A stretch of DNA of 64,000 bases from Candidatus Bathyarchaeota archaeon. GTDB taxonomy: Archaea > Thermoproteota > Bathyarchaeia > Bathyarchaeales > Bathycorpusculaceae. How positions within the stretch are numbered: position 1 is the first letter of the stretch; each line of letters starts with the position of its first letter. Positions 281-28,125 of this stretch are shown here, piece by piece. Below the pieces are notes generated by a model. It ran no database searches. It worked only from the letters and a program-made list of their open reading frames with translations, and had not been told where the DNA came from. The position numbers and the translations under genes were made by a program. The stretch is from the NCBI GenBank assembly GCA_963833575.1, contig CAWHXY010000004.1, positions 224,001-288,000 of the forward strand, in the 5' to 3' direction.

Positions 281-391
281 TTCTCAAATTGTCTAAAAAT
301 GTCAAATAATGTCAAATCGTGTCAAATTATGTCAAAAAATGTATCAACCTGCAACCAAATCAAACCCCAAATCAAAAAAGCAACCCAAAAC
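281..391 (+). repeat. Dispersed element copy B: 10-bp tract (GTCAAATAAT-type, ~5 units) plus 47-bp core at 345-391
   Basis: gtctaaaaat gtcaaataat gtcaaatcgt gtcaaattat gtcaaaaaat then CAACCTGCAACCAAATCAAACCCCAAATCAAAAAAGCAACCCAAAAC. Confidence 0.9.
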
Positions 392-505
392 ACAAACAAA
401 GAAATTTGAACGAGAATATCCAATCGGAGATTGTGACAGTTAACTGATTCTGGTCTGAATTATTTATTAGGTGGTTAAAGTCAAATCTAGGTTGAGGCGT
501 TTTCT

Positions 506-1000
506 GTGAGTTTTGAAACACAAGTTGCAAAGACTTTGCCGATGGATAAGTTGGAGAAGCGTATTGTCGAGTTTCTGAAGGAGCAGAATATGTGTGTTCT
601 CGCTACTTGCGGCGAGGGGGTTGCGCGTGCTACTCCAATTGAGTTTCACTCTAAAGGATTAACATTGTATTTTGTAGGAGAACCAGGAACGAAGATAAAG
701 AACATTGCCAGGAATCCAAATGTGAGCGTGGGCATTTTTCTGCCATATACGGGTTGGGACAGCGCGAAAGGTGCGCAGATCACTGGAAAAGCAACAGTTA
801 TCTCCAGAAACAGCCCTGAGGAATTCAAAGAAGGCTTAGAAGCATATCAATGGGAAAAAACAGCCAAAGAATTAAACATAAAGATGTTTCCTAAGTCAGT
901 GGAGTTAATCAAAGTTGAACCAGAAAAAATCGAATACGTAGATATGTCACTGAAAAAACTAGGCTACAACCCACGACAAGTGTACACCTCAGTTAAATAA
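506..1000 (+). CDS. Pyridoxamine 5'-phosphate oxidase-like FMN-binding protein
   Basis: CVLAT...ATP...K.KNI..NPNVSV..GAQITGKA split-barrel pattern. Confidence 0.85.
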   Translation: MSFETQVAKTLPMDKLEKRIVEFLKEQNMCVLATCGEGVARATPIEFHSKGLTLYFVGEPGTKIKNIARNPNVSVGIFLPYTGWDSAKGAQITGKATVISRNSPEEFKEGLEAYQWEKTAKELNIKMFPKSVELIKVEPEKIEYVDMSLKKLGYNPRQVYTSVK

Positions 1001-1103
1001 AGACAAAAGTTCAATCTCCCACGAGGTATACCTTCATTTTCTGAACAGTGCCATCGTTAATAGTTATAAGATTCGCTGTGGCAATTATTTGTAGGGATTT
1101 GTT

Positions 1104-1307
1104 ATGAAAGTGAAAATTAAAGAGAACGGTCCTATTTTGTTAGAATCGAATGGGCATGCAAAAATAACGCAAAATGGACAGGAAAAACCAATCCAAGGCT
1201 CAATAGTAGCACTGTGCCGCTGCGGCCAAAGCAAAAACTTACCATTCTGCGATGGATCACACGCAAAAGCCAACTTCAAAGCAGATGCAGCAGAAATCGA
1301 CATCTAA
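1104..1307 (+). CDS. CDGSH iron-sulfur domain protein
   Basis: LCRCGQSKNLPFCDGSH motif; N-terminal NGP. Confidence 0.95.
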   Translation: MKVKIKENGPILLESNGHAKITQNGQEKPIQGSIVALCRCGQSKNLPFCDGSHAKANFKADAAEIDI

Positions 1308-1463
1308 ACGGCAACTGAGTTTCAGCCGCCTCAAGAATCCTTTTTTCAAACAAAGCTACGAAAGAACTTGCAAACTTCCTAAAATATTTTCAAAATCAGA
1401 ATCCACAGGCTTGGGCAATAACAATTATACCACACGAATCACTTACTTTATCAAGGTTATTTT

Positions 1464-1844
1464 ATGTTAAGACATGCAGAGCCTAAAGAACAGTATATTT
1501 CAGACTTGAAAATTACGAAGATCTTAAGCACGGTGCCACATGATAAAGCATTTTATTTTTACACTGATCTTGGCCGCTACACTGGTGAGGCAGCTACAGA
1601 CTTAGCAACATTCGCTCAAAAGCTGGAAACGATAAATGCTGATTGTGTCAAATTTCATTTTCAAAGAAACGACTATCAAAACTGGATAAAAACCACTGTA
1701 GGGGATAATGTCTTAGCTGAACGAATCAACCAAATAAACCGACAGCTCCCTGTTGAGGAATTGAGGAAGGAACTTGCTGAAACCGTGCAAACACGAATCA
1801 CGCAGCTAAAGCTTCAACACGACCAAATGATCCGCTCACAATAA
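1464..1844 (+). CDS. DUF5752 family protein
   Basis: AFYFYTDLGRYTG.AA.DL..F...L......V.FHFQRNDYQNWI...GD..LA pattern. Confidence 0.75.
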   Translation: MLRHAEPKEQYISDLKITKILSTVPHDKAFYFYTDLGRYTGEAATDLATFAQKLETINADCVKFHFQRNDYQNWIKTTVGDNVLAERINQINRQLPVEELRKELAETVQTRITQLKLQHDQMIRSQ

Positions 1845-1910
1845 AGCAGGGTAGGTCGCTAAAAACTCCTAAACAATTGGTTATGAATGTTTTACAGAAG
1901 ATCTGGATTT

Positions 1911-3056
1911 TCAAGTTTTTCTCCTCTTTGCAACGATAACTGCAGACAAGACTACGATCATCGAGACAAACAGAGTGATTCCAACCAGTTGGCTAGGAAA
2001 CTCTGGAACTGAAGATGTCGCAGACGGAGTTGAGGTAGATGTTGTGGCTGAAGACGCTGGGCTTGGCGTAATGGATGTGCTTGAGGAATCTGATATCACT
2101 GAGACCGTGTCACTCTTAGAATTGGTTACGAATGTTTCACCCTTAGCAGAATCGTAAGCCACAAAATCAGGAACGATGCCAACGTTTACGGTCGCAACCA
2201 CTGCGTTGGTGCTGTCCGATATTACCGAAACAGAGTTGTTGCCGCCATTGGCCACGAAAATCTGGCCCATGCCGGAATCATAAGCAACGCCATAGGGATA
2301 GGCAGAAGGGACAAGATTGATTGTTCCGACGATGGAATCGGTGCTATCTGATATAGCCAAGACCTGATTGTCGTTGGTGTCGGACACGAATATCTCGTTT
2401 TTGACGGGATCATAAGCCACTCCATAAACATAGTTGCCCACTTGGAACCCATTGACTACGGTATTGTTGTTGTCTGCAATAACTTCTATTTCGTTAGCTG
2501 AATTTACGGCCACGAAAATCTCGCCCGTGCCCGAATCATAAGCTGCACCCAAGGGGTTGTCCTGAACAGTTACGGTTGCTACCAATTGATTAGTGGCGTC
2601 TGATATTACTGAAACGGTGTTGATACCGGAATTGGTTACGTAGATCTCGCCATTGCCGGAATCGTAGGCCACGCTCCAGGGGTTGGTTCCAACGCTCACG
2701 GTTGCCACCACCTTATTAGTGCTGTCCGATATGACCGAGACAGAATTAGAACCCCAGTTGGACACAAATATCTCGCCCTTGGTAGAATCATATGCTAAGC
2801 CCCAAGGAGTAGTTCCTACAGTAATCGTTGCGACAACCTTATTGGTGCCTTCCGATATGACCGAGACGGAGTTAGCGCCAGCACCATAATTCGCTACGAA
2901 TATCTCGCCTCTGGCAGAATCATATGCTACGCCCTCCGGAGAACTTCCCACTGTAACCGTCGCTGTTACCCCAGCGGCGTGGACTGCGTTGACTGCTGAC
3001 AAAACAAAAATCATAATGAATAGTAAACTCAAAATCCTACAAACTCTAAATCTCAT
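1911..3056 (-). CDS. YncE/YVTN beta-propeller surface protein with PEF-CTERM-like sorting signal
   Basis: Signal peptide, 7 repeats (VG..P.GVAYDS..GEIFV.N..SVSVISD), Ser/Thr linker, VPEFP, TM helix, KRRK. Confidence 0.9.
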   Translation of the reverse strand: MRFRVCRILSLLFIMIFVLSAVNAVHAAGVTATVTVGSSPEGVAYDSARGEIFVANYGAGANSVSVISEGTNKVVATITVGTTPWGLAYDSTKGEIFVSNWGSNSVSVISDSTNKVVATVSVGTNPWSVAYDSGNGEIYVTNSGINTVSVISDATNQLVATVTVQDNPLGAAYDSGTGEIFVAVNSANEIEVIADNNNTVVNGFQVGNYVYGVAYDPVKNEIFVSDTNDNQVLAISDSTDSIVGTINLVPSAYPYGVAYDSGMGQIFVANGGNNSVSVISDSTNAVVATVNVGIVPDFVAYDSAKGETFVTNSKSDTVSVISDSSSTSITPSPASSATTSTSTPSATSSVPEFPSQLVGITLFVSMIVVLSAVIVAKRRKT

Positions 3057-3466
3057 TATCCTCTCTCACCTTTGTGTCCCCTCAAGTGAAATGCAGATAA
3101 AAGCATTTCGCCAAGCAACACGTCGGTAAGATGCCAAAAGCTCGCTTTCTTCTGTTTCTTTCTGAATCCATTGCCCCGAAAGAGTCGCAGCAATTTCGAA
3201 GCTATGCCTAGCAAAGTCTCCGTCATATCTGATTCTCAAGTGCACTTGGAAGTTCTGGATCTCCAAGCACAACATCATCTGCGTCCCCTTCCCAAACGGT
3301 GCTCGAATTAAGCAGCACTTATACTATAAGCATCAACGATAATAGTAATTTTTGCGCCCATACAGAACGGGTGACTTTTTCAATGAAAATGCAAAGTTTG
3401 TACAAATTAGGGAAAAGTCTTAAATTGAAACTGGAAAATAGGCTAAAAGAGAAGAAATTCGAGGGA

Positions 3467-3832
3467 ATGCAAATGAAAATCAAAGTTTGGAAACTCTTAG
3501 GTTTGTTATCAGTAGTGATCTTCATGTTGTCCTCAGCCGGTTCAGTTCATGCTGCAGCCGCAACAGCAACTATAACCGTAGGAAACAGTCCCGTAGGCGT
3601 GGCTTACGATTCTGGCAAAGGCGAAATATTCGTAGCGAACAACTGGGCAAATACAGTTTCTGTCTTATCTGATTCCTCCGGGACATCTAGCACGTCTAGC
3701 CCAACAGCATCTGCATCAAAAAATCCATCAGTACCTGAATTCGGAAGCACAGCGCTCATCATGGTTGTGGCGACAATGGTTGTTGCGGCATGTGCAGTTG
3801 CTTTGACAGTGAGGATAAGAAAACAACTGTGA
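3467..3832 (+). CDS. Single-repeat YVTN mini-protein with PEF-CTERM (possibly an internally deleted paralog)
   Basis: Likely start is ATG 3467 or 3473. Signal peptide, one YVTN repeat, Ser/Thr linker, VPEFG, TM, basic tail. Confidence 0.7.
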   Translation: MQMKIKVWKLLGLLSVVIFMLSSAGSVHAAAATATITVGNSPVGVAYDSGKGEIFVANNWANTVSVLSDSSGTSSTSSPTASASKNPSVPEFGSTALIMVVATMVVAACAVALTVRIRKQL

Positions 3833-4096
3833 TAGTATCAAGAAGAAATGGAGATTGCGAAAAAGTCCCCTTTATTTTTTCCCTTTTTAGTTGCTTGCAT
3901 AAAGATTGTTAAAATTGGAGAATGCGGAAACTAGAACTCCATGTTTTTTAAAAAGTTTTTAGGTTCTGTTCTTATCTCGTAAGTTGGATCTTAGCGATCA
4001 AGGTCACTGGTTGCGGTTGGCATGATCGAGATTTAAAACTTGATTTTAATGAATTTTGGGACAAGCGATCGCCCAGACTCAAAACTGAATTGATGA

Positions 4097-4501
4097 CTAC
4101 TCTATTTGGAAGACGTTTCCACATTTTGTGCAACTGATGCTTTGCTTCCCAGTTTCTTTGGAAATAACCAAAAGATAACCGCAAGATGGACACTTGATTG
4201 TTTGTATCTTATTTTTAGCCGGTTCGGTTCTCTTGGCTGGTTCTGTTCTGGGCTCTGGTTCAGTTCGGGCTTCTGGCTCCGTTCTAGGCGCCGGTTCAGT
4301 TCTAGCCTCTGGTTCCCATTTGCTTGCTTGAACTTTTGTCAACAAACTCATCCCGATAAGTAACTCCAAAACATCTGCCGCTTTTATGTTTACCTCATCG
4401 CACACTCTGGTCGCAGACCACTTGATAGACAAGATGGTGCGCGGATACGTGGTGCCTTGTCTAGGCCAAGTGAGGGTTCTTAAAGCGCAATCTGGAACCA
4501 A
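4097..4501 (-). CDS. Hypothetical protein with RTEPxx repeats and a C-terminal zinc ribbon; 5' end uncertain
   Basis: RTEPAP RTEPEA RTEPEP RTEPAK RTEPAK; CPSC...CTKC. The track's start codon lies inside repeat copy C. Confidence 0.55.
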   Translation of the reverse strand: MVPDCALRTLTWPRQGTTYPRTILSIKWSATRVCDEVNIKAADVLELLIGMSLLTKVQASKWEPEARTEPAPRTEPEARTEPEPRTEPAKRTEPAKNKIQTIKCPSCGYLLVISKETGKQSISCTKCGNVFQIE

Positions 4502-4522
4502 TTTAAACCCTGAAACAAAAAG
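4488..4522 (+). repeat. Dispersed element copy C (truncated core)
   Basis: CAATCTGGAACCAATTTAAACCCTGAAACAAAAAG; same CAATCTGGAA variant as copy E. Confidence 0.7.
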
Positions 4523-4590
4523 TTAGGTGGAGCAAGCTGGTTAAGATTCAGATAATTCAATAGTGCGAACGGCTTTGATGTCAGATTTTT

Positions 4591-4772
4591 CGCGGTTAAA
4601 TCGATTGAACGCGATTAAACTAGCTTAAAATAGCTTAAACTAGCTTGAACTAGCTTAAAAGGGATTAAACTAGCTAAAAATGCACTCAACCTGCAAACAA
4701 AGCAAAGGCTGAATCAAAAAAGCAACCTAAAACAACTTGAACAAAATGGCAACGCCAACGCTGTAGTTCTTT
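4591..4772 (+). repeat. Dispersed element copy D: 10-bp tract (TAGCTTAAAC-type, ~8 units), core 4687-4733, tail
   Basis: tcgattgaac gcgattaaac tagcttaaaa tagcttaaac tagcttgaac tagcttaaaa gggattaaac tagctaaaaa. Core is 40/47 identical to copy B by manual alignment. Confidence 0.92.
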
Positions 4773-4849
4773 TTAAGAAAAGTAATTTTTGAAAATTAGG
4801 AATAGTTAAATATTTACTCTATAAAGGTAGATTTAGGGAGAATGGATTT

Positions 4850-5647
4850 TTGAATCAAACTGTAACTTTCAAGTGTTCTGACGGCGCTGATATGACAACT
4901 TATGTTGCCGCGCCTAAATCTGAAGGTCGACACCCGGCAATCATTATTGTCCATGAAGCTTGGGGCCTTAACGACCAGATTAAAGGTGTAGCGAACAGAT
5001 TTTCTGACCAGGGCTTTGTTGGCATAGCTCCTCATCTTTTCAGCCGAGACAAAGATCTAACTGAACAAGCAATTGAGAAAGCTATGATGCGGATGTGGCA
5101 AATTCCCCCCGAAAAACGCAGCGACCCCACAACTGTACAGAGCTTAATGGCAAGTCTACCCGAGAATGAACGAAAAATAGTGAATTTCTTCTTCGCAGGC
5201 CGAGAAAACGCTGAAAAAACAATGACACAAGACCTTCTCTGCTGCATAAACTATACTAAAACCTTAGAAGAGGTAGATGGAGAAAACCTTGGAATTACAG
5301 GTTTTTGTTTAGGCGGAGGCCTAACCTACCAACTTGCAACCGAATACCCATTCAAAGCAGCCGTTCCCTTTTATGGCGCAAATCCCAAACCACTTGAAGC
5401 AATCGCCAAAATTAAGTGCCCAATATTTGGAATCTACGCAGGAGAAGACCTAAGAATTACCAGCACAGTTCCAGCCCTAGTAGAAAGCATGATAGCCAAT
5501 AAGAAAACGTTTCAAATGAAAATCTACCAAGGAACACAGCACGCCTTCTTCAACGAAAAAAGACCATCATACAATAAAGACGCAGCGGAAGATGCATGGA
5601 CCATGACTTTAGCCTTCTTCAACAAGTACCTCAAGGCGAACAAATGA
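4850..5647 (+). CDS. Dienelactone hydrolase family protein
   Basis: HEAWGL, GFCLGG nucleophile elbow, HAF. Confidence 0.93.
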   Translation: MNQTVTFKCSDGADMTTYVAAPKSEGRHPAIIIVHEAWGLNDQIKGVANRFSDQGFVGIAPHLFSRDKDLTEQAIEKAMMRMWQIPPEKRSDPTTVQSLMASLPENERKIVNFFFAGRENAEKTMTQDLLCCINYTKTLEEVDGENLGITGFCLGGGLTYQLATEYPFKAAVPFYGANPKPLEAIAKIKCPIFGIYAGEDLRITSTVPALVESMIANKKTFQMKIYQGTQHAFFNEKRPSYNKDAAEDAWTMTLAFFNKYLKANK

Positions 5648-5795
5648 GCACCAAACAAAACCAGAAAGAGGCAAGTCTCCTCTGGGACTGCTTCACCAAC
5701 TGGTCCCAAACACTAGAAAAAACCTTAGAACAAAAAGACACAGCAACAAAATCGCAGAGTTTCTAGGCTAATATGTTCTAGTATAATTTGACGAC

Positions 5796-6227
5796 TTACT
5801 TCACATTGAAAACAAATCTATAACGGTCTTTACCAACCCTTTCAACCTTAAGAATCTCAAAATAGCCAATCTCGCCCGTGTTTTCGACATGCGGATCCTT
5901 GCAGGGGGTTTTGTCAAACCCTTCGATTTCAACGATTCTGACCGTTTCTATTGAAGAAGGCAATCTTGCCAGATCAAACTCTTTTTGCGCATCTTCCCTG
6001 TTCATAATATGTTTGCTTACCCGAAGGTTCTTCTTTATCACGACGTTGACGTCATCCTGCAGTGCTATCCTGTTAATATTCCTCAGATCTTCTTTGGTGA
6101 CAATTTCCATTTTTCCAAAGTTCTCATAGAACTTGGAAATGATGAATTTTGAATCGGGAAACCTGCTTTCCAAAATCCTTGAAAGAATGTGTTCGGCAGT
6201 TTGAAGTCTGCCTTCGATTGGCTTCAT
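5796..6227 (-). CDS. AlaX/tRNA_SAD-like trans-editing domain protein
   Basis: QTAEHIL and PCKDPHV.NT.EIG resemble the HxxxH / CxxxH editing motifs. Likely start is ATG 6227. Confidence 0.75.
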   Translation of the reverse strand: MKPIEGRLQTAEHILSRILESRFPDSKFIISKFYENFGKMEIVTKEDLRNINRIALQDDVNVVIKKNLRVSKHIMNREDAQKEFDLARLPSSIETVRIVEIEGFDKTPCKDPHVENTGEIGYFEILKVERVGKDRYRFVFNVK

Positions 6228-6352
6228 AAGATTTTGTTGATACCAATTTCTATTTAAGAATTTAACCAAAACTTAAGCGGAGCTACAACATGAAATTCTG
6301 TGTCTTCTCTAAAAAGAAAAAGGGGAAATAGGGATTGTTTTATTGTTTGTTC

Positions 6353-12130: not shown

Positions 12131-12424
12131 ATGAGACGTTCCAAACTAGAAATGTACGTTGACATCCTCAGTGTTTTGGCTCACAGAGGACCGTTAAAAC
12201 TAACACACGTTATGTATAAAGCAAATGTTAACTGCAGTGTCCTCAAAGAGTATCTTGATTTTCTCATGAAACAGGGCTTAGTGGAAGAACGCACCATAAG
12301 GAAACAACGTACTGTCTACGCTGTTACTCAACGGGGAATAACAGTTCTGAAATACTTTAAAGAACTAAAACAGGTTTTACCTATAGTAGAGGAAGCAAGA
12401 AACCAAGCATCAATTCCCTACTAA
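12131..12424 (+). CDS. Winged-helix protein (HTH_45/DUF4364-like)
   Basis: RRSKLEMYVDIL...THVMYKANVN...YL..L...GLV...Y.VT.RG. Confidence 0.88.
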   Translation: MRRSKLEMYVDILSVLAHRGPLKLTHVMYKANVNCSVLKEYLDFLMKQGLVEERTIRKQRTVYAVTQRGITVLKYFKELKQVLPIVEEARNQASIPY

Positions 12425-13830: not shown

Positions 13831-13969
13831 ATTTTCGCCGTTTTCCAACTTTTAACGCCGATTACCGCCGCTTAACACCGCAATCTGGAAACAAATCAAA
13901 CGCTGATTCAAAAAAACAATCCAAAACAGACAGTCCAGAAATAGCAATTCCAACTGTTGTTGTTCATTC
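13831..13969 (+). repeat. Dispersed element copy E: 10-bp tract (TTAACGCCGN-type), core 13881-13927, tail
   Basis: attttcgccg ttttccaact tttaacgccg attaccgccg cttaacaccg CAATCTGGAAACAAATCAAACGCTGATTCAAAAAAACAATCCAAAAC...CTGTTGTTGTTCATTC. Confidence 0.88.
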
Positions 13970-14010: not shown

Positions 14011-14171
14011 ACATCTTTTGATGTTGGTTGACGATCGTTGACGTATTTTGACGAATAGCGACGACTGTTGACGAATATTGACGTAGCCTGCAAACATTAC
14101 AATCCCCAAACCCAAAAAACAATCTAAACCCGTTTGATTAAAAATTGCAATTTCATCTGTTGTTGTTCTTC
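14011..14171 (+). repeat. Dispersed element copy F: 10-bp tract (ACGNNNNTTG-type, ~7 units), core 14084-14130, tail
   Basis: acgatcgttg acgtattttg acgaatagcg acgactgttg acgaatattg acg TAGCCTGCAAACATTACAATCCCCAAACCCAAAAAACAATCTAAACC...CTGTTGTTGTTCTTC. Confidence 0.88.
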
Positions 14172-14295
14172 TAAAGAATAAGAGTTTTTTTGCTCAAATA
14201 AAAGAATGGGAAGCTGAGCTCCTCATGTCTCTGGTTAGTTTAAGTATCAGTGAACATATAAAATACAATTCAAAAATAGTTTGGAACTTTAACTG

Positions 14296-15543
14296 GTGAA
14301 CATTTTGAGAATCGGCTTCTTTGTTTATGAATATTCACCAGCAATTGTTGGTGGCTTAGGGACGTATGCTGAAAATGTAACACAGGAATATGTTGACATG
14401 GGACATGACGTTTCAGTTTTCACATTAAATTTTGGGGGGAATCTGAAAACCAGAGAAATCCTAAGAGGTGTGGAGGTTCATCGTCCATTAATTGCTGATG
14501 CGAGCAACGTTTTTCCATTTTTCGTGGTTGACGATTTAAAGAAATGGGGAACTAACATAAAATTCTTCAATGACATTTTCATGTACAATATTCTCAGCGC
14601 GACTAAATTCATCAACGGCTTGATAAAAAAAGAGAAGTACAATTTTGACGTTGTGTGCGTACACGATTGGCTAAGCAGTATTTCCGGTCTTGTGATAAAG
14701 AACGAAACAAAAATCCCAGTGGTCTTTCATACACACAGTACGGAATGGGGAAGAAGCGAGGGTAAGGGATCGGAAGTGGTGTCGCATTTTGAAGATGCGA
14801 TGGCTCACAACTCAGACAGGCTAATCACCGTCAGCTACGCCATGCAACAAGACTTAATTAAGCATGGTTGGCCGTCATCAAAAATAAGCGTAGTCTGGAA
14901 CGGAGTCGACCCTGACCGCTACAACATGGCAAAATGCAAACCCGAGGACATAGCAGCAATTCGCGAAAAGTATAGCGTTCCAAAAGATTGGAACATGCTT
15001 CTGTTTGTGGGAAGGCTATCTTGGGTAAAAGGCGCTAGAAACCTTGTGTTAGCAATGCCCTCTGTCCTAAAGGAATACCCTAACACCAAACTCGTAATTC
15101 TAGGTAAAGGGGATGAACAAATAATAACTGAAGCTGCCTACAGGTTAAACATAACAAACAACGTAGCTTGCCGCTTTGATTTTGTGTCTGAACCAGAGAG
15201 AATCCTGCATTACGCCGCTTCCGACGTATGCATATTTCCATCTGTCTACGAACCATTTGGAATTGTGTCCTTAGAGGCCATGGCAATGGAAAAACCAGTG
15301 GTCGTAGGCGCACGCGGTGTAGTAGGTTTTAAAGAGCAAGTACTAAGCTCCGGCCCTGACCAGAACGGTGTGCACATAAATGGCGAAGATCCTCTCGACA
15401 TAGCCTGGGGAATAAAAGAGACCTTGCGAAACCCCGAAAAAGCCAGAAAATGGGGTGAAAACGGACGCAAAAGAGTAATAGAATACTTCACATGGCACAA
15501 AGCTGCGGACGAGACACTAAAAATCTACGAATCGCTAATCTGA
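14296..15543 (+). CDS. GT4 family glycosyltransferase (putative glycogen/alpha-glucan synthesis)
   Basis: GGLGTY, HDW, H.HSTE.GR, FVGRL, PSVYEPFGIVSLEAMA. Confidence 0.9.
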   Translation: MNILRIGFFVYEYSPAIVGGLGTYAENVTQEYVDMGHDVSVFTLNFGGNLKTREILRGVEVHRPLIADASNVFPFFVVDDLKKWGTNIKFFNDIFMYNILSATKFINGLIKKEKYNFDVVCVHDWLSSISGLVIKNETKIPVVFHTHSTEWGRSEGKGSEVVSHFEDAMAHNSDRLITVSYAMQQDLIKHGWPSSKISVVWNGVDPDRYNMAKCKPEDIAAIREKYSVPKDWNMLLFVGRLSWVKGARNLVLAMPSVLKEYPNTKLVILGKGDEQIITEAAYRLNITNNVACRFDFVSEPERILHYAASDVCIFPSVYEPFGIVSLEAMAMEKPVVVGARGVVGFKEQVLSSGPDQNGVHINGEDPLDIAWGIKETLRNPEKARKWGENGRKRVIEYFTWHKAADETLKIYESLI

Positions 15544-15640
15544 AAAGATTAAAGACTGCACCAGAATAATCAAGCGTCCTCTAATAGACTAATAAGAATG
15601 TCTTACCTTAACAGTAGATCAATCCCAAGGTAGATGTTTT

Positions 15641-15937
15641 ATGCCAGTAACAATTGGTTCACTATTCAGACGAATTGTTAAAGAATTGAAGACGAAAGAC
15701 GACAACCCAAATAGCTGCTTAAACAATCCAAAAAGCGACTTCTATAACCCAAATCACGACATCAACAATCCATGCAGCGACATCAACAACCAAAATAGCG
15801 GAATCAACAATGCGTCAAATAACCAATACAACAAAGAACTGCGAAGATGCGCTCTGCGAGAACTCATAAATTTGTATTTGTCTGACTATCTGTCTACTTA
15901 CCAAACAGAGAAGCCCGTTGCAGAGTATATCCCATGA
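15641..15937 (+). CDS. Hypothetical protein with Asn-rich heptad repeats
   Basis: NPNSCLN NPKSDFY NPNHDIN NPCSDIN NQNSGIN. Confidence 0.55.
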   Translation: MPVTIGSLFRRIVKELKTKDDNPNSCLNNPKSDFYNPNHDINNPCSDINNQNSGINNASNNQYNKELRRCALRELINLYLSDYLSTYQTEKPVAEYIP

Positions 15938-15968
15938 AATCATTAAGCACTAAGTAAAACAAGGTTTT

Positions 15969-17990
15969 TTGATGAGCGATCTTGAAAACCGATTAACTCG
16001 CCTGCTAAATAGTGATTCGTACCTCGGCCCGTTTTCTGATCAAATTCGACACAGATTGGAAAATATTGAAAAAACAGAGGATCGCCTAACTCAAGGCAAA
16101 ATGACCTTAGCAGATTTCGCGTCCGGCCACGAATACTTTGGCATGCATTTTCAAAGAGGAGAATGGGTATTTCGTGAATGGGCACCAAACGCAACAAAGA
16201 TTTACCTGATAGGCGATATGAGTAAATGGCAAGAGAGCCGAGAATTTGAACTCCAAAAGATCAACAACTTTGGCGTCTGGGAAATTCACCTGACCGCTAA
16301 CAAACTAAAACATGGCGATTTGTATCGGCTCCGTATTCATTGGGCAGGGGGCGAAGGCGATCGCATTCCAGTGTACGCTCGACGAGTTATCCAAGATCCA
16401 AAAACATTGATTTTCAACGCCCAAGTATGGTCACCTCTTCAAACATATTGTTGGAAAGAAACTAATTTCAAAAGACCTGAAGAGCCCCCTATCATTTACG
16501 AAGCTCATATCGGTATGGCACAAGAAGAAGAAAAAATCGGAACCTTCCAAGAATTCACTCTCAACGTTCTTCCGCGAATCGTCGCCGCTGGATACAACAC
16601 GTTACAGCTAATGGCTATTCAAGAACATCCATACTATGGATCATTTGGATATCAAGTATCAAGCTTTTTCGCTTCTTCATCACGGTACGGAACACCTGAG
16701 GATTTGAAATTATTAATCGACTCTGCGCATTCCAAAGGGCTCAGCGTCTGCATGGATCTAATCCACTCCCATTCTGTGTCCAACGAGGTGGAAGGTTTAA
16801 GTCGCTTCGACGGAACACTATTTCAGTATTTTCATGAAGGCCCGCGAGGAATTCACAAGGCATGGGATTCACGAGTCTTTGATTATGGCAAACCTCAGGT
16901 TTTGCATTTTTTACTTTCCAATTGCCGATACTGGCTAGACGAATTCCACTTTGACGGTTTTCGGTTTGATGGCGTCACAAGCATGATTTACCTTGAACAC
17001 GGTCTTAAGAGAGTATTCACTTCCTACAACGATTATTTTGATGGAAGCGTGGATGAAGAAGCTCTTACATACTTGGCTCTAGCCAACAGGGTGATTCATG
17101 ATGTGAACACCGACGCTATCACCATAGCTGAAGACGTTAGCGGCATGCCTGGTCTAGCCGTTTCCCAGTCAAAGGGCGGGTTCGGTTTTGACTATCGCTT
17201 CGCAATGGGCGTGCCTGATTACTGGATCCGTCTAATAAAAGATTACAAAGATGAAGACTGGCCCACCAGTTACCTTTGGTTTGAGCTTACCAACCACAGA
17301 ACAGATGAGAAAACCATTAGTTACGCCGAATCTCACGACCAAGCATTAGTGGGAGACCAAACACTTATTTTCCGACTGATCGGCGAAGACATGTACAACC
17401 ACATGTCCATCGATGATGAAAATGCAAAGGTCGCCCGGGGAATAGCATTGCACAAGATGATCCGTCTAATAACCCTAAGCTCAGCCAACAACGGATATCT
17501 AAACTTCATGGGCAACGAATTTGGCCACCCAGACTGGATAGATTTTCCCCGGGAAGGAAACAACTGGTCATTCAAACATGCACATCGACAATGGCATCTC
17601 GCAGACGACACCCACCTAAAATATTATTTACTAGCCCGATTTGACCGCGACATGATTGCCCTAGCCAAAACACATCACCTACTTGAAACGCCTCTCCTGC
17701 AACTCCTGCATGAGGATTCCACAAAAAAAGTAATCATTTTCAAGAGGACTGATCTGATTTTTGCCTTCAATTTTAATCCCCAACAATCCTTTGCTGATTA
17801 TCGATTCGAAGCGCCTCCTGGAAAATATCGAATGATTCTAGACAGTGATTCACCAAAGTACGGAGGACACGGTCGCCTGGACCCCAAGCAAACTCATTTC
17901 ACTCTTTATGATAACATTGAAGGAAAAAATCAAAACATACTCAGTCTCTATCTGCCAGCGCGCATCGCTTTTGTCCTAGTAAGAACATAG
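15969..17990 (+). CDS. glgB: 1,4-alpha-glucan branching enzyme (GH13_8-like, with CBM48)
   Basis: FREWAPNA, IYEAHIGM, HPYYGSFGYQV, catalytic FRFDGVTSM / AEDVS / ESHDQALVGD. Confidence 0.93.
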   Translation: MMSDLENRLTRLLNSDSYLGPFSDQIRHRLENIEKTEDRLTQGKMTLADFASGHEYFGMHFQRGEWVFREWAPNATKIYLIGDMSKWQESREFELQKINNFGVWEIHLTANKLKHGDLYRLRIHWAGGEGDRIPVYARRVIQDPKTLIFNAQVWSPLQTYCWKETNFKRPEEPPIIYEAHIGMAQEEEKIGTFQEFTLNVLPRIVAAGYNTLQLMAIQEHPYYGSFGYQVSSFFASSSRYGTPEDLKLLIDSAHSKGLSVCMDLIHSHSVSNEVEGLSRFDGTLFQYFHEGPRGIHKAWDSRVFDYGKPQVLHFLLSNCRYWLDEFHFDGFRFDGVTSMIYLEHGLKRVFTSYNDYFDGSVDEEALTYLALANRVIHDVNTDAITIAEDVSGMPGLAVSQSKGGFGFDYRFAMGVPDYWIRLIKDYKDEDWPTSYLWFELTNHRTDEKTISYAESHDQALVGDQTLIFRLIGEDMYNHMSIDDENAKVARGIALHKMIRLITLSSANNGYLNFMGNEFGHPDWIDFPREGNNWSFKHAHRQWHLADDTHLKYYLLARFDRDMIALAKTHHLLETPLLQLLHEDSTKKVIIFKRTDLIFAFNFNPQQSFADYRFEAPPGKYRMILDSDSPKYGGHGRLDPKQTHFTLYDNIEGKNQNILSLYLPARIAFVLVRT

Positions 17991-20484: not shown

Positions 20485-20611
20485 ACAAAGAAGTCAAATG
20501 GGTAATTAATTGAAATAAGAATGTTATCAAAACACGTTTTATTGATTGTAGGTACAAAAGAAAGTAATGATTTCAAGTTACGCGGAATTCTCTTGATTTT
20601 TAGGAAAAGTA

Positions 20612-20926: not shown

Positions 20927-20956
20927 AACGGGCTTCCCGAGTTTTAAGATGTCAAC

Positions 20957-20977
20957 GCTACTATTTAAAATAGTAGC
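20957..20977. promoter_or_regulatory. Palindromic operator 2, overlapping the TATA-like box of the wHTH gene
   Basis: Perfect palindrome GCTACTATTT-A-AAATAGTAGC about 30-50 bp upstream of ATG 20926. Confidence 0.75.
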
Positions 20978-21043
20978 TACTTAAGCGTCTACGAACAAGC
21001 TACCCCCAACCCCGAACAGATAACTTTGATCAGGTTTTTGAAA

Positions 21044-21165
21044 GTCTCATTATCGAATTGTCTAATAATGTTAATAATGAACCTGCCTGCAAAAGATCAA
21101 GCTCTGAACTAAAAAAACAACCCAACCCATATTAAAAAAGGGCACCACAAGTGTTGTTGTTCTTC
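21044..21165 (+). repeat. Dispersed element copy H: degenerate GTCTAATAAT tract, core, tail
   Basis: gtctaataatgttaataatg..CTGCCTGCAAAAGATCAAGCTCTGAACTAAAAAAACAACCC...GTGTTGTTGTTCTTC. Confidence 0.8.
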
Positions 21166-21216
21166 TTTTGAATGATTTCAAGATAACTGCATTCTAGCTT
21201 TAGTGTTGGCTTCGCA

Positions 21217-22992: not shown

Positions 22993-23214
22993 TTCTCTTC
23001 CTTCGAATCGGTTAGTTACAAAATAGATTTAAGGCTTTGGTTTACCCGCTAGCATTATCTTAAATTAATTTGAGATTTTCACTAATTATGAAAAATTTTC
23101 ATAAAACACAGAATGAATGAAGACTAAAGACATTGGAATCTCATATTATTTGATAGAGCTAATTGATTTCGGGATAAGCCAGCTGGTATTATATTTCTGA
23201 GACTTTAGTTTCGT

Positions 23215-23412
23215 CTAATCTGACCAGAAAGAAAAAAGTAAGAAATAACTCCGCCTGGAGTTATGTTTTCTTATAGTTTTTTGAATTGTTACGTTTGGAT
23301 TTTTTTCCGCCGGTTTTTTGACTTTCAGTGTAGCTGTGCATAAAGTTAATACTGTCATTGCGGCTACTGCGGAAACAATCGCTACATTGCTGAATTCTGG
23401 TACTGTAGGCAA
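23215..23412 (-). pseudogene. Orphan PEF-CTERM-like sorting-signal remnant
   Basis: PTVPEFSNVAIVSAVAAMTVLTLCTATLKVKK begins about 20 nt after the stop of the YVTN gene 23431-25335. Confidence 0.65.
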
Positions 23413-23430
23413 TGCAACTATTTTATTTCA

Positions 23431-25335
23431 CTATATCAGCAACAACCAGGCAATGAAGATAATTAGGGTAGCTACGAATAGTTCTGCCCAAAGACGTTTG
23501 CTATGGCTGAATATGTCTTTTCCACTCATGGGCGATATTGGGAACGTTCCAAAGAAAGAGCCGATCACACACATTGACAATCCGGCATCCCCAATAGCTG
23601 GGTAACCACCCTTCAAAAGCAAGAAGAATACTCCAGCGAAGGCTAGGCTGATAAGGATTCCTGAGGCAGCAACCATAGCGCCTAGGTGTTCTGTGTATTT
23701 TTTGGAGTTGACGCTTCGCGTGGGAGAAGAGAAAGGAACCTTAAAGGCAAAGGTTGTGAAAAGAAAAAGAACCAAGCCTAAGGGCCAAATTGAGTGTTCG
23801 CTCCATACGCCTTTGCTTCGCAGATACGCTATGGAGAAGAACTTTTGAACAAAGCCAACAATGAAGCTTGTTGCCAAGAAAACAGGTAATAACACCCAAA
23901 TTTGACTCAGAGTGATGACTTTGACATATGAGAAGGAAATGGCCAAAACAACAACCAAAACCACATACGCTAAAGTTTCAGTCTTAGTGGGTTTGAAAAC
24001 AGAACCAGCTTTATCTTTTGCGTCTAGCTTACGTCTAGAGGCAACAACTTCTTCAAGCCACTCTCTTATTTTGTCAGGAATCAAGTCTCGAGTCTTTTCT
24101 CCGATTGCTCCACCCACGCCCCCTAACGGGTTACTTATTACAGCAAAAAGCAACGAAACTACACCTAAGACTACTGCGGATACACCGACTGCTGCTACTG
24201 CATTAGTTGGACTAGGAACCCAAACCTGTTGCAAAAGGTCTGACGAAGAGGATGGCTGCGGTGATTGAGTAGGACTTGATGTTGGATTAGAATTTGGGCT
24301 TGCTGTTGGAGAAGTAATTGGAGTTGGCGACGAGGAAGTTCCTGGACTGGCCGTGACAGACGTGGAAGAATCCGATATTACAGAAACCGTGTTGGCTCCC
24401 AAATTTGTTACAAATATTTCGCCTTTTGTGGAATCGTATGCTACACCTGAGGGTGTGGTCCCTACGGTTGCTGTTGCAACGACAGCGTTAGTGCTATCAG
24501 AAATAACTGAGACAGTTCCAGAACCGTGATTGGAGACATAAATCTCGTTTGTGCCAGAATCATAAGCTACGCCGTAAGGGGTGGTTCCAACTGGTATGGT
24601 TGCAACAACTGCGTTGGTGCCGTCTGATATAACGGAGACTGTGTTGGCGCCTGAACCGTAATTGGCAACAAAAATCTCACCTTTGCCGGAATCATAGGCT
24701 GCGCCTGCAGGAGAGATTCCCACAGTTATGGTAGCAGTCACGGCATTATTGTTATCGGAAATAACTGAGACCGTATTATAGCCAGAATTGCAGACAAAAA
24801 GTTCTGCCTTTCCTGAATCATAGATTACTTTATTGGGATTTGTTCCGACGGTAACGGTTGCAACTACCGAGTTAGAACTATCAGAAATGACCGAGACTGT
24901 GTTGTCCCCAGAATTAACTACGAATACTTCACCTTTGACTGAGTCATAAGCTATGTTACTGGGAGTTGTTCCAACTGTCACGGTTGCAACGACAGCATTA
25001 TTACTATCAGATATGACTGAGACGGAGTTGGAACCATGGTTGGTCACAAATACCTCATTCTTACTAGAATCATAAGCTACCCCGGTAGGAGAAGTTCCGA
25101 CGGTCACTGTTTTGACCACGGCTTTAGTGCTATCAGAAATAATTGATATTGTGTTGTACCCTGAATTTGCTACGTAGAGTTCACCTTTGCCGGAATCATA
25201 AACTACTCCAGTGGGAGAAGTTCCCACCGTTATTGTGGAGGTTACTCCAACTGCATGGACACCACTAACTACAATAGAGCAAGCAAAAACAACCATGAAT
25301 ATTAATACCAAAAGCCTCAAGACTTTAGCATTCAT
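23431..25335 (-). CDS. YVTN beta-propeller protein fused to an M50 (site-2 protease)-like polytopic membrane domain lacking catalytic motifs
   Basis: 7 YVTN repeats, Ser/Pro/Thr linker, then WPLG...F..P...G.MVAASG...FFGTFPISPMSGKDIF. Confidence 0.8.
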   Translation of the reverse strand: MNAKVLRLLVLIFMVVFACSIVVSGVHAVGVTSTITVGTSPTGVVYDSGKGELYVANSGYNTISIISDSTKAVVKTVTVGTSPTGVAYDSSKNEVFVTNHGSNSVSVISDSNNAVVATVTVGTTPSNIAYDSVKGEVFVVNSGDNTVSVISDSSNSVVATVTVGTNPNKVIYDSGKAELFVCNSGYNTVSVISDNNNAVTATITVGISPAGAAYDSGKGEIFVANYGSGANTVSVISDGTNAVVATIPVGTTPYGVAYDSGTNEIYVSNHGSGTVSVISDSTNAVVATATVGTTPSGVAYDSTKGEIFVTNLGANTVSVISDSSTSVTASPGTSSSPTPITSPTASPNSNPTSSPTQSPQPSSSSDLLQQVWVPSPTNAVAAVGVSAVVLGVVSLLFAVISNPLGGVGGAIGEKTRDLIPDKIREWLEEVVASRRKLDAKDKAGSVFKPTKTETLAYVVLVVVLAISFSYVKVITLSQIWVLLPVFLATSFIVGFVQKFFSIAYLRSKGVWSEHSIWPLGLVLFLFTTFAFKVPFSSPTRSVNSKKYTEHLGAMVAASGILISLAFAGVFFLLLKGGYPAIGDAGLSMCVIGSFFGTFPISPMSGKDIFSHSKRLWAELFVATLIIFIAWLLLI

Positions 25336-25486
25336 TTGACTTCCCTCTCTCCTTGTTCCAAAAGGCTATCATTTAGTTTTCATTTAAAACTTCCGTTTGC
25401 CTGTTTAGTAGGACTCAATAAAGAATGTTATTCATTGTAAGTTTATAGAGGAAAAGAGACGATGTGGATTAAAGAGGGTTTGAGAA

Positions 25487-25696
25487 ATGGAGAAACCAAT
25501 AAAAACAAGTAACAACAGCAAAATGCATGGCATAATTTTGGGCGTGATAGGAATAATCTTAGCGATCGTTGGAGCAACAATAATAAGTGTTAGAGGTATG
25601 CCATTTCGAGGCTCAGGTCTTGGCACTATCTCACTTGTTATAGGTATTGTACTGCTAGTCATCGTAATGCTAAGTTTATTTTATAAACAGCCATAA
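25487..25696 (+). CDS. Small two-TM membrane protein
   Basis: Two hydrophobic helices, GAGG-like RBS. Confidence 0.65.
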   Translation: MEKPIKTSNNSKMHGIILGVIGIILAIVGATIISVRGMPFRGSGLGTISLVIGIVLLVIVMLSLFYKQP

Positions 25697-25775
25697 TTAG
25701 CGTTCACCATAGACTCATCCATTTTCTTTTTTTCGAAGCACTCATGTTAGCACCCTACCCTTAGCTTGTTTATGT

Positions 25776-27464
25776 TTAGGTGAATTTGCCTTTTGTTTTG
25801 AACTGCTTTTCATAGATTTCCCTAACTCTGTCTATGGTGTCAGCTTCGTTAGGTGTTTTGTCGTCTCGGATCCGAGTGATCCGCGCAAACCGAAGCGCCA
25901 TTTGGCTCTTGTATTTGGGGCTCTTCTGAATCTCATTGTACGTGACCTCAACCACAATTTTAGGAATCACCTCAACGTGATGCCCCTCCAGTCTAACCGC
26001 ATAAGCCTCTAAGTGCTTTGTCATTTCAGCCATTTCGGCGTCGGTTAACCCTTTGAAGGTTTTGCCTAGATCCAAAAACTCACCTGTCTCAGGATCCCTC
26101 GCAGCAAAATAATAATCGGAGAGCCAGCTTTTACGTCTCCCATAACCATACTCGGCAGCAGTTATAACAAGATCTAAGGTCTCGAGCACTGGTTTTATTT
26201 TCAACCATTTTTTTCCTCGATTTCCAGGCGTGTAGGGACTGTCAAGTTTCTTCGCCATTAACCCTTCGTGCCCAGAAGACGTAGCTTCTTTGAAAAAATC
26301 TTCTGCCTCATCGATCCTATTGGTCACGATTTGCTTGCTTAAGCTGATTTCTTCTGCAGTCTGGGCTAAGATTTGCCTACGCTGATCATAGGGCAGCGTG
26401 ATTAGGCTTTCACCGTTCAGGTAGAGGATATCGAATAGGTAAAGCGTCAAAGGAATTTTCTGTGCCATGCTGGCTATTTCTCGGGTTCGTTTGAAGCGGC
26501 GCATTAAATGCTGAAAAGCAATTGGATAACCTGCACTGTCCAATGCGACGACTTCGCCTTCAACGATTGCTGACTGCGCCACAATGTTATGTTTTACGAT
26601 TTCAACGATTTCTGGCAGGCTTTCCGTGACATTACTGAGTCGTCTACTGAAAATCTCGACGTTACCGTTTTGTTTGTGGATTTGAACTCTTGCACCGTCA
26701 TACTTGTATTCGAAAGCGGTTTTGCCACTAAACTCTTCTAGAGCCTCTTTTACTGACTGAGCGGTTTGTGCGAGCATCAGCTTCACCGGCCTAAAAACGC
26801 TAAAGCCCGCTTTCTCTAAGCCTTCTAATCCTTGTGTTTTGAGGGTTGCCGCAACCTCGCCTATGTCTCCTAAAACCATTCCAGCATGCTGCACTTTCTT
26901 TAGAGGCACATCAAATGCTACTGCGACAGCCTGCTCCATTAAACCCTCATGAAGACCAGTGCGCATTTCGCCAGTGAAAATTTTCACCAAGTATTTGGCT
27001 TCAAGGGGGGTCGCTTGGCTAAACAGACTAGTGACTTGGCGTTCTTTTTTGGTTCTTGAGCCTGCACCTGATGCTTGGGCGATGGCTTCGAAGGCGCGAC
27101 TGACTTCGGTTATTGTTAAGGAATTTTGGGTCAGCTGGGTTTGTTTCTTTGTTTTGGATTGTTCAAGAACTGCTTTCGTGGCTGAGCCGATGTCACCCGT
27201 ATTTGCCATTGCTTCACTAAATTTGTCCCAGTTAAACTGGCTTACCTGCTCCAAAACCCCGGTAACGGTAGACCAACTGACATCGAGCATCTTTTGGCTG
27301 TATTTTGGAAAAGCACGGCCAACCATCATGTTTACCGCTGGCTCAATTTCTTGTGGTGTAAGAGTTTTTAGGTAGTTTGCGGTTAAATCTATGATTTCTA
27401 ACCGTTTTGTTGTCGCTTCAACTTTTTCAAGAAGGCCAGAGAGAGATTTGAATAATGCAGACAT
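25776..27464 (-). CDS. lig: ATP-dependent DNA ligase
   Basis: EYKYDGARVQIH, EGLMAK, WLKIK, ALRFARITRIRDDK. Confidence 0.97.
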   Translation of the reverse strand: MSALFKSLSGLLEKVEATTKRLEIIDLTANYLKTLTPQEIEPAVNMMVGRAFPKYSQKMLDVSWSTVTGVLEQVSQFNWDKFSEAMANTGDIGSATKAVLEQSKTKKQTQLTQNSLTITEVSRAFEAIAQASGAGSRTKKERQVTSLFSQATPLEAKYLVKIFTGEMRTGLHEGLMEQAVAVAFDVPLKKVQHAGMVLGDIGEVAATLKTQGLEGLEKAGFSVFRPVKLMLAQTAQSVKEALEEFSGKTAFEYKYDGARVQIHKQNGNVEIFSRRLSNVTESLPEIVEIVKHNIVAQSAIVEGEVVALDSAGYPIAFQHLMRRFKRTREIASMAQKIPLTLYLFDILYLNGESLITLPYDQRRQILAQTAEEISLSKQIVTNRIDEAEDFFKEATSSGHEGLMAKKLDSPYTPGNRGKKWLKIKPVLETLDLVITAAEYGYGRRKSWLSDYYFAARDPETGEFLDLGKTFKGLTDAEMAEMTKHLEAYAVRLEGHHVEVIPKIVVEVTYNEIQKSPKYKSQMALRFARITRIRDDKTPNEADTIDRVREIYEKQFKTKGKFT

Positions 27465-27570
27465 TTAGTTAACCAAGAAATTTTGAACGATAGAAATAGG
27501 GTTTCGGTTGCTTATTTAATTAATTCCCAAAAAATTGTTCATTTAATTAACATTTTCACTAGGATTCTAG

Positions 27571-27678
27571 AATTTTCGAGCAACTCGGGACAATTTGGGA
27601 CAATCAGGGACAAATAGGACAATTCTAGACGCAACCTGCAAACAAACCAAACCCTGAATCAAAAAAGCAAGCCAACAT
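27571..27678 (+). repeat. Dispersed element copy I: 10-bp tract (GGGACAATNN-type) plus core 27632-27678
   Basis: caactcggga caatttggga caatcaggga caaataggac aattctagac g CAACCTGCAAACAAACCAAACCCTGAATCAAAAAAGCAAGCCAACAT. Confidence 0.92.
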
Positions 27679-27730
27679 AAGTTGCAAAGAAATTTGCCCA
27701 CTTTATGGTAAAATTATTAAAGATCTGTCT

Positions 27731-27811
27731 CGATGTTTCACAATGATTGGGATGATTCGCGATGCCAGCTGCAACCGACTTAAGCTATAAAACAAAAAAG
27801 CAACCTAACGC
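27731..27811 (+). repeat. Dispersed element copy J: CGATGATTCG-type tract plus core 27765-27811
   Basis: cgatgtttca caatgattgg gatgattcgc gatg CCAGCTGCAACCGACTTAAGCTATAAAACAAAAAAGCAACCTAACGC. Confidence 0.8.
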
Positions 27812-27910
27812 AAAAAAACAAAATGTAGAAGAAAATAATTTGCGCTCAAGGACATCTAAATTTCAAGACTTAAAGATAGAGACATGTTAAATCTCAATTT
27901 CCATTTTAGC

Positions 27911-28020
27911 ACAAATAACGAAAAAAACGACTGATACACGACAAATCTACACGCAACCTGCAAACGTTTCAAAGCTTAAACCAAAAAAACAACCCAAAAC
28001 AAACTGAACAAAAATGTGCA
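27911..28020 (+). repeat. Dispersed element copy K: ACGACAAAT-type tract plus core 27954-28000
   Basis: acaaataacg aaaaaaacga ctgatacacg acaaatctac acg CAACCTGCAAACGTTTCAAAGCTTAAACCAAAAAAACAACCCAAAAC. Confidence 0.88.
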
Positions 28021-28051
28021 CATTTTACACCTTAAAATATTGAGGATCTAC

Positions 28052-28125
28052 CACGATGATTCGCGATTAAACACGATGATGTCTGAAAACGCCACTATAC
28101 CTTAATTAGGAAAGCAAACAAAAGA
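28052..28125 (+). repeat. Dispersed element copy L (degenerate): CACGATGATT tract plus core 28079-28125
   Basis: cacgatgatt cgcgattaaa cacgatg ATGTCTGAAAACGCCACTATACCTTAATTAGGAAAGCAAACAAAAG. Confidence 0.55.

Follow-up and report, generated by a model that had tools for sequence, protein, structure and literature searches.

A 64-kb stretch of DNA from Candidatus Bathyarchaeota archaeon (hereafter the window; positions 224001–288000 of contig C4 of genome G000, which is 2.75 Mb with 41% GC) contains tandem arrays of 10-bp units, each followed by a conserved core of ~80 bp. We propose that these arrays are series of binding boxes, one per helical turn, for a lineage-expanded family of ~90-amino acid (aa) proteins related to PhS018 and AbrB, a reading to which we assign a probability of roughly 0.6. 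The array-core element is present in many copies in peat and soil Bathyarchaeia, and its anatomy, its linkage to the gene of the small protein, its distribution and its fast turnover are observed directly. All the tracts in the window are orphan copies without the small gene, and no member of the protein family is encoded there.

A profile built from seven window cores detected 78 array-core elements in the genome (nhmmer, E<1e-3), which are confined to intergenic regions. In the 80 nt upstream of these cores, the mean self-identity is 0.568 at lag 10 and 0.538 at lag 20, against 0.25–0.31 at the other lags. For 65 of the 78 upstream 80-mers, the value exceeds the 99th percentile (0.414) of 3000 control intergenic 80-mers, which extends the 10-bp signal beyond the examples first described in the window. 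The best lag is 10 or 20 in 68 of the 78 elements, and 23 of the 78 score highest at a 20-bp super-period. An unbiased scan of the genome revealed 20 strong 10-bp arrays; all 20 adjoin a core on its 5´ side, in the correct orientation, and 72 of 79 cores from other species are preceded by such arrays. The arrays comprise two to eight units, most commonly six (20 of 63 scored arrays), which are contiguous, head to tail, and lack unique spacers; a CRISPR array, with units separated by unique spacers, was rejected on this ground. The orientation of the elements has no useful link to GC/AT skew or gene strand in a test of replication polarity, and the core pattern has 0 matches in viral contigs.

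A long match between two element loci revealed a small open reading frame (ORF) on the strand opposite the element, beside the array. The genome contains ten members of this protein family, nine intact and one degenerate (jackhmmer on ORFs; hmmsearch --max on six-frame pieces), and all ten are divergent from and adjoin the array side of an element. In other species, a divergent core is located next to the small gene at 25 of 29 loci (Infernal); nhmmer recovers the core at 24 of these 29 loci and at 9 of 9 here. The loci of the four exceptions (G012:C1:7626-10973, G058:C6:22347-44921 and G087:C29) belong to a 91–92-aa sub-family that occurs as tandem or close copies with no detectable core. Over 33 gene-array pairs, the start codon is separated from the array-core junction by a median of 101 nt (range 39–196), and 29 of the 33 gene-linked arrays are periodic at 10 bp. 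In one copy, a GGAG precedes the ATG by 12 nt and the array begins at a distance of 16 nt; another copy has a 36-nt spacer with a TATA-like AAAGGCTTAAGTAT between gene and array. At C6:214745-214900, a (GGGAAC)n hexamer microsatellite lies between one small gene and its array, with (SR)n in the upstream open frame.

The number of protein copies follows the number of elements across 26 genomes (Spearman rho 0.87), the significance being overstated by the kinship of the genomes, and the six genomes with no element (6/6) have no protein copy. Of the 78 copies here, 68 are gene-less orphans, and 36 of these 68 match the unit of a gene-linked array in this genome with at most 3 mismatches in 10. 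The orphan at C4:892132 has its flank and unit family in common with a copy of G044 that bears the gene; this is suggestive of derivation from the gene-bearing type through copying of the cis part or through gene loss. In a class-wide sample, the small-protein family is present in 14 of 201 genomes, at one to three copies per genome outside the genus. Among three outside-genus copies that were inspected, two have a few ~10-bp boxes upstream and the third has less regular GACT repeats; all three carry a diverged core-like block. Because boxes and a core-like block accompany these copies, the gene-boxes-core unit predates the expansion within the genus.

To characterize the protein, an AF2 model of a family member was calculated (pLDDT 85.7). 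Its best structural match is PhS018 of Pyrococcus horikoshii (PDB code: 2GLW), with VIA Z 12.3 and a root-mean-square deviation of 1.9 Å over 83 of 90 residues at 23% identity; the next unrelated VIA rows have Z 6.9 or lower. Foldseek also aligns the model with 2GLW (TM 0.72, E 1.3e-5) and ranks MraZ chains next, with a probability of 0.99. The structural match spans the whole chain of PhS018, which is likewise a single chain of ~92 aa, although the similarity in sequence is marginal: the family profile searched against PDB sequences returns 2glw_A at E 0.036. PhS018 is classed with AbrB-like DNA binders and described as uncharacterised, its DNA binding being only predicted (PMC4333400). Among nine family members, neither Pfam nor NCBIfam gives a family above the cut-off, Pfam lists no SpoVT/AbrB match at E<=1, and PADLOC matches 0 of 9. 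The model suggests that the small protein is a PhS018/AbrB-related β-barrel that probably binds DNA; it falls outside the MraZ and AbrB profile families. Public data contain 883 clusters of this family at E<=1e-3; among the 120 clusters listed, none has a Pfam domain and most are labelled 'hypothetical' or are nameless.

The units fall into at least 18 discrete families in the pooled set of arrays. According to the preliminary description of this DNA, the period of the tracts is kept and their sequence is not. The period does hold; the sequence fails to be conserved only between families, and within a family the same words are common to many loci and species. Words found at many loci are TGTCAAAT, TAG(C/A)TTAAAC, TTGACG, GGGACAAT, ACGCAGAA, TTTTGACTTA, CTTTTCTGTAC, TGTCTAAT, GCACA and others, and additional words from other species include CCCGACACAT and TGTAGTGACG. 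The phase of the units was determined with one representative of each of 18 families, chosen among 121 periodic arrays from this and other genomes taken together. An A/T-rich half and a G/C-containing half hold one register relative to the array-core junction across the families (Rayleigh R 0.60, n=18 families, p about 8.5e-4), and the GC fraction varies from 0.19 to 0.65 with the position in the unit, which bears out the earlier observation that a G/C patch alternates with an A/T patch in each unit. Unit words are shared by members of the same protein clade. Protein and unit co-vary with a Mantel r of 0.22, which is reached in 10 of 5000 permutations, and within this genome with r 0.50 (8 of 5000); in 16 of 33 cases, a protein and its nearest neighbour share their unit, versus 12% expected.

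The fixed phase of A/T and G/C patches that alternate every 10 bp would also suit a chromatin element, in which a tetramer of archaeal histones is placed by the ~60-bp array next to a poly(dA)-rich core that excludes histones, and both the prevalence of six-unit arrays (20/63) and the presence of three histone genes in the genome fit such an arrangement. However, histones need no family-specific word, whereas the units are discrete words that co-vary with the linked protein, and the element counts track the small-protein family; a chromatin role is thus highly improbable. The phased docking surface beside a sequence-specific core that had been suggested earlier finds support in kind, from the fixed phase across 18 families and from the gene linkage (10/10 and 25/29); the candidate protein is neither a histone nor a ribbon-helix-helix ParR.

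MraZ with its promoter boxes is functionally the nearest known system. MraZ occupies its own promoter cooperatively at four repeated boxes, with one subunit per box in the major groove, and the spacing of the boxes matters (PMC12957436). The likeness is at the level of DNA anatomy: a small protein of AbrB-superfamily type is encoded beside direct-repeat boxes in the 33 gene-array pairs, of which 29 are periodic. In contrast to MraZ, which has ~140 aa, the protein described here has ~90 aa, is archaeal, has no dcw context and does not match the MraZ profile above the cut-off. Its arrays contain 3–8 boxes with many family-specific words and adjoin a conserved 80-bp core, and up to about 100 gene-less copies are present per genome.

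By analogy with MraZ, we infer that the protein binds DNA, with one protomer in each box, and regulates its own gene; roles for the orphans and the core are likewise proposed. A complete unit consists of the small gene pointing one way, the box array ~15–40 nt from its start codon, and the ~80-bp A/C-rich core pointing the other way. Each protomer would read the 5–6-bp G/C-containing word of one 10-bp unit, and the protomers would be aligned on one face of the DNA. Cooperative binding that overlaps or abuts the promoter of the small gene would result in autoregulation. The paralogues may have diverged together with their unit words, while the cis part (array and core) would have spread, or been left behind after gene loss, to produce the orphans. 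Slippage inside arrays and recombination between cores would drive the turnover of orphans, which would serve as extra docking or titration sites or else be relics. The core may also serve as a nucleation site for the small protein, and its T-rich strand would supply oligo-T termination signals to the genes that end against it.

With this proposal, fixed-length, variable-sequence repeats, a class so far without explanation, gain a specific partner that can be tested. The uncharacterised family may be a collection of small regulators that each recognise a particular short word occurring once per turn of the helix. Should binding be confirmed, the 33 natural pairs of protein and array from the sampled loci would form a data set for how the fold reads DNA and would show how operators multiply and disperse in an archaeal genome. 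The gene-array-core unit could conceivably go further and act as a self-propagating archaeal module, in which the small protein is nucleated at the core, polymerised on the boxes, and promotes copying, retention or recombination without a classical transposase. This appears unlikely; if true, new box specificities would emerge as protein and word co-evolve, and a natural, readable recognition code would result, with one small protein per 5–6-bp word.

Several observations weigh against docking boxes for the small protein. A shared fold is no proof of DNA binding, and the closest structural relative of the model, PhS018, is itself uncharacterised. MraZ chains are only middling by VIA (Z 4.6–5.3), MraZ (PF02381) is found in one of nine members at E 0.013, and NCBIfam TIGR01439 is found in four of nine below threshold (best E 0.02, 14.6 bits versus a cut-off of 28.3). 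Four of the 29 gene loci in other species have no core. As gene and array are adjacent and the genomes are kin, their co-variation and co-distribution may reflect shared descent. Within this genome, 32 of the 68 orphans have no gene-linked array with the same unit, including the large TAGnTTAAAC, GGGACAAT and TTGACG families, and the unit words do not form paired sites elsewhere in the genome, outside the elements. The strong conservation of the core is left unexplained by docking boxes. Finally, orphans favour convergent intergenic regions (20 of 61, compared with 18% of all intergenic regions), a preference that selfish repeats show. The 61 element-bearing regions comprise 20 convergent, 35 co-directional and 6 divergent ones; the corresponding numbers for all intergenic regions are 475, 1630 and 472.

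The distribution of the element is patchy. With a sequence-only covariance model, the core is found in 18 of 24 other genomes of the genus, at 0–113 copies per genome; it is absent from all 16 genomes that represent other families of the order. The element counts are 113 in G013, 77 in G044, 2 in G012 and 0 in G014. The nearest relatives, which share about 85–92% DNA identity, were compared locus by locus. Orthologous elements differ by one unit gained or lost (L061 and L068), the gains and losses between species fall inside arrays, and the same core or flank is associated with different unit families in different species (L063, L064 and L085). G044 has a three-module stack where this genome has an empty 55-nt spacer, and an inversion-type rearrangement is found between inverted copies at L057. 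Two metagenome contigs (L198/L199) have the array of module 1 joined directly to the core of module 3 of a stack in the window, which is the outcome expected from recombination between two direct-repeat cores.

In the window, a 2.8-kb indel relative to G044 ends exactly at a core, at 4762. The block that is missing from G044 holds two genes, at 1911-3056 (-) and 3299-3832 (+), for repeat-rich, secreted-looking proteins with a PEF motif, a hydrophobic stretch and a basic tail, which we take to be 'PEF-CTERM-like'. Synteny is also broken at elements 3 and 4, ahead of a glycosyltransferase gene, with homology to G013, G044 and G045 beginning at 14216. At 14296-17990, the genes for the glycosyltransferase and the glycogen-branching enzyme stand in the opposite order to that in these three nearest relatives, with elements 3 and 4 at the junction. 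Elsewhere in the genome, two-module composites with a conserved linker of ~100 nt recur, one type four times (C4:1009055/1009279, C5:39423/39635, C4:133005/133201 and C8:76250/76065) and another twice (C2:41192/41017 and C5:81677/81878). The composites are ~350–380 bp long and ~70–72% identical, and their linker reads TTTTCCCTCGAAATC..TCTTTCAAA..TTTTGAG.CTATTTTCACTTTG before TGTCTAA/TGTCAAAT arrays.

An alternative is that the element is simply a selfish non-coding repeat of the type of miniature inverted-repeat transposable elements (MITEs) or REP, with the small gene as a mere neighbour or passenger and the arrays as minisatellites seeded at one end. In favour of such a repeat, the copy number varies from 0 to 113 within one genus and is zero in the 16 genomes outside it, G044 has whole stacks that this genome lacks, the same intergenic region may carry different families in two species, rearrangements and an inversion are found at copies, the elements are enriched in convergent and depleted in divergent regions (20 and 6 of 61), and two-module composites are copied as units. 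Against it, the core stays nearly invariant next to arrays that are completely different and constrained in phase, and the gene linkage (10/10 and 25/29) is hard to obtain by chance. No terminal inverted repeats, hairpins or target-site duplications were seen in an alignment of twelve TGTCAAAT copies with their flanks, target duplications not having been searched for systematically. The 94%-complete genome has no multi-copy transposase and 0 TnpB matches, and its IS200-type Y1 elements have hairpin ends and no core. We therefore regard a purely selfish repeat as rather unlikely.

Units are most uniform next to the core. Identity to the array consensus decreases from 8.73 in the first unit to 8.19, 8.02 and 7.67 in the second, third and fourth units from the core (63 arrays), and perfect proximal units are combined with degenerate distal units in arrays of other species (L119, L129, L139, L141 and L165), which confirms the reported decay. 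This polarity is real, and an ordinary edge effect of tandem arrays could produce it. The preliminary description had offered another explanation, polar growth, in which the array is extended by 10-bp units through an activity anchored at the core, similar to telomerase or a CRISPR leader. The uniform proximal units and degenerate distal ones, the precise junction with the core and the arrays that are perfect over 4–7 units (L103, L125, L149 and L165) would agree with such growth. In contrast, no match to RVT_1 or Prim-Pol was found in the 94%-complete genome, and the dispersed TGTCAAAT copies, twelve in number, have an identical order of unit variants, with homology from the first unit to ~80 nt into the core, which indicates that an array is passed on in one piece. 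The indels of units that distinguish species are internal to the arrays, and the replacement of arrays is explained by recombination between cores. Enzymatic growth from the core is therefore not borne out and seems extremely improbable.

The core consists of CAACCTGCAAAC, ~15 variable bases, (T/C)AAATCAAAAAAGCAAC, AAAACA and then AAAAATTGCA, and these blocks are nearly invariant while the arrays differ completely. To assess promoter signals, a weight matrix was built from the upstream regions of 44 tRNA genes of this genome. Its commonest best site in the cores is a BRE/TATA-like CAAACCCTAAAT, and the matrix does not separate the cores from other intergenic DNA: the median score is 4.9 bits for cores, 4.2 for convergent intergenic regions and 5.9 for real promoter regions. 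A gene on the same strand is located downstream in 21 of 61 element-bearing regions, at 62–681 nt, compared with 35–60 nt between ordinary promoters and the ATG in this genome. The T-rich strand of the core carries T6–T7 runs. For 40 genes whose 3´ end faces a core, the first run of at least five T after the stop falls in the core complement in 21 cases, and such a run is present within 50 nt for 65% of core-facing genes versus 31% of other genes. Archaeal transcription terminates at oligo-T, which together with the T runs makes the core a de facto terminator/insulator for genes that end against it.

These signals would be central to a portable transcription cassette, in which the core is a promoter (or, through its T strand, a terminator/insulator) and the array is a curved or activating region that works independently of the protein. 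The CAAACCCTAAAT site and the T runs of core-facing genes (21/40; 65% versus 31%) speak for such a cassette, but the core scores fall between those of convergent regions and real promoters (4.9 versus 4.2 and 5.9 bits), the downstream same-strand gene exists in only 21 of 61 regions (at 62–681 nt, versus 35–60 nt for ordinary promoters), and the orthologous genes in relatives lack the element. We give the cassette little credence.

A subset of cores has a conserved 3´ extension, AAACTG(A/T)(A/T)CAAAAATGGCAA, followed after 6–8 nt by TGTTGTTGTTCT; ~15 copies here and many from other species carry it, for example at window positions 14140–14170, 13930–13960 and 100–170. The CTGCAA...TTGCA pair and the GGCAA...TGTTGTTGTTC 3´ extension were inspected by eye. 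No consistent RNA stem was seen by eye in the core or the extension, where TGAACA, TGTTCA and TGATCA alternate without compensation. At C8:156334-156419 and C7:359596-359681, only the 3´ half of the core is present, and a TATA-like AATTTAAAC located 24 nt upstream replaces the array and CAACCTGCAAAC. One of the half-core copies precedes by 171 nt a gene that, judged from its N-terminus, presumably encodes a tyrosyl-tRNA synthetase.

In the window, eight named tracts were scored by their lag-10 self-identity against 2000 shuffles each, and the 10-bp periodicity that had been assigned to all of them is significant in seven. Every tract runs directly into an A/C-rich core, with the array on the 5´ side, and the reported ending of tracts in ACG, CCG or ATG at the core is found at five of seven junctions. 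All the elements are on the + strand. Element 1 consists of an array of TGTCTAA/TGTCAAAT units at 281–344 (5.3 copies at 290–342 by Tandem Repeats Finder (TRF); lag-10 identity 0.80, reached by 0 of 2000 shuffles) and a core at 345–420 that was identified by nhmmer (E 9.6e-12) and core alignments. Element 2 has an array of TAGCTTAAAC units at 4601–4686 (TRF 4615–4679, 6.5 copies; 0.73, 0/2000) and a core at 4687–4762 (E 2.7e-14), whose 3´ end forms the edge of the 2.8-kb indel, with homology to G044 resuming at 4761. Elements 3 and 4 are neighbours: TTAACGCCG units at 13831–13880 (TRF 13852–13881, 3.0 copies; 0.62, 0/2000) precede a core of the CTGGAA variant at 13881–13958 (E 2e-14), and TTGACG units at 14011–14083 (TRF 14038–14083, 4.6 copies; 0.65, 0/2000) precede a core at 14084–14161 (E 1.2e-14).

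The remaining named tracts belong to a stack of four modules. Module 1 has GGGACAAT units at 27581–27631 (TRF 27587–27624, 3.9 copies; 0.65, 0/2000) and a core at 27632–27709 (E 9e-17), and module 2 has a short array of CGATGATT units at 27731–27764 (0.54, 4/2000) and a core at 27765–27840 (E 1.9e-11). The degenerate tract at 27911–27953, for which a 9-mer ACGACAAAT had been claimed, is not periodic at lag 10: its identity of 0.33 is reached by 1325 of 2000 shuffles. It leads into the core of module 3 at 27954–28027 (E 2.2e-14), the core that is joined straight to the module-1 array in contigs L198/L199. Module 4, at 28052–28150, combines a CGATGATT array (28052–28078; 0.65, 0/2000) with a decayed core that was recognised by eye and gives no nhmmer hit. 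All other period-10 TRF rows in the window have at most 2.1 copies. The window also contains an element that the preliminary description had not listed, with a short TGTCTAAT array and a core at ~21047–21143 (E 1.5e-5 at C4:245082-245143), and two core remnants; a degenerate core without an array lies at 4480–4521 (E 4.3e-5 at C4:228486-228521).

The element resembles several other repeat systems in part. ParR-parC and iteron arrays are helically phased direct repeats that are bound by a small oligomerising protein encoded nearby; in contrast, about 80 dispersed chromosomal copies are present here and the fold is not ribbon-helix-helix, and no partition or Rep genes were noticed beside the copies, although no systematic survey was made. 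Pneumococcal BOX, REP/BIME and MITEs are mosaic, many-copy intergenic repeats with variable internal tandem sub-units. The element is likewise modular, many-copy, intergenic, patchy between relatives and a hot spot of rearrangement, but it has no visible palindromes or terminal inverted repeats and no partner transposase was found for it; its sub-unit is exactly one helical turn, and a protein gene is linked to its complete copies. Non-coding tandem repeats of constant size and variable sequence were described by Subirana and Messeguer in Bacillus and other bacteria, and a protein that forms polymers along the DNA was proposed for them (PMC8161180). There, too, the unit length is fixed and several unrelated unit sequences occur per genome; the bacterial units described there are 20–21 or 52 nt, compared with 10 bp in this archaeon. 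Here each array is tethered to a conserved core and has a candidate protein partner, whereas the word 'flanking' appears 0 times in the text of PMC8161180. No description of the array-core element was found in the literature that was searched. What is new is a ~90-aa family tied to the array side and, on the proposed reading, a regulator with phased boxes that would have become a dispersed, many-copy modular element. When Bathyarchaeia are annotated, many long intergenic regions, breaks in synteny and probable assembly breaks can be attributed to the element.

Two other candidate partners were rejected. The copies of the HTH_45 winged-helix paralogues are unrelated to the number of elements: 5 copies accompany 113 elements in G013, 18 copies accompany 2 elements in G012, and G014, with 0 elements, still has 10 copies. 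HTH_45 has 12–13 paralogues in this genome, one of which is at 12131-12424 (+) in the window, and 0–21 matches in the sampled genomes of the genus. The IS200-type Y1 transposase co-occurs only loosely with the element, has hairpin ends without a core, and has an element nearby at one of seven loci. A single, frameshifted Y1 transposase gene is present here (C7:653945-654303), and intact multi-copy IS200-like elements with hairpin ends are found in relatives (G002, G016, G063 and G074; L200–L205). The genome also encodes five tyrosine recombinases.

Two further features were recorded. At window positions 55506-55611 (-), Rfam identifies a 106-nt tRNA that probably bears an intron, and ARAGORN reports none with the settings used. 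Contig C4 carries five small paralogues with at least 60% identity (at 110570, 292705, 331291, 705074 and 977775), which we take from their sequence to be Alba-like.

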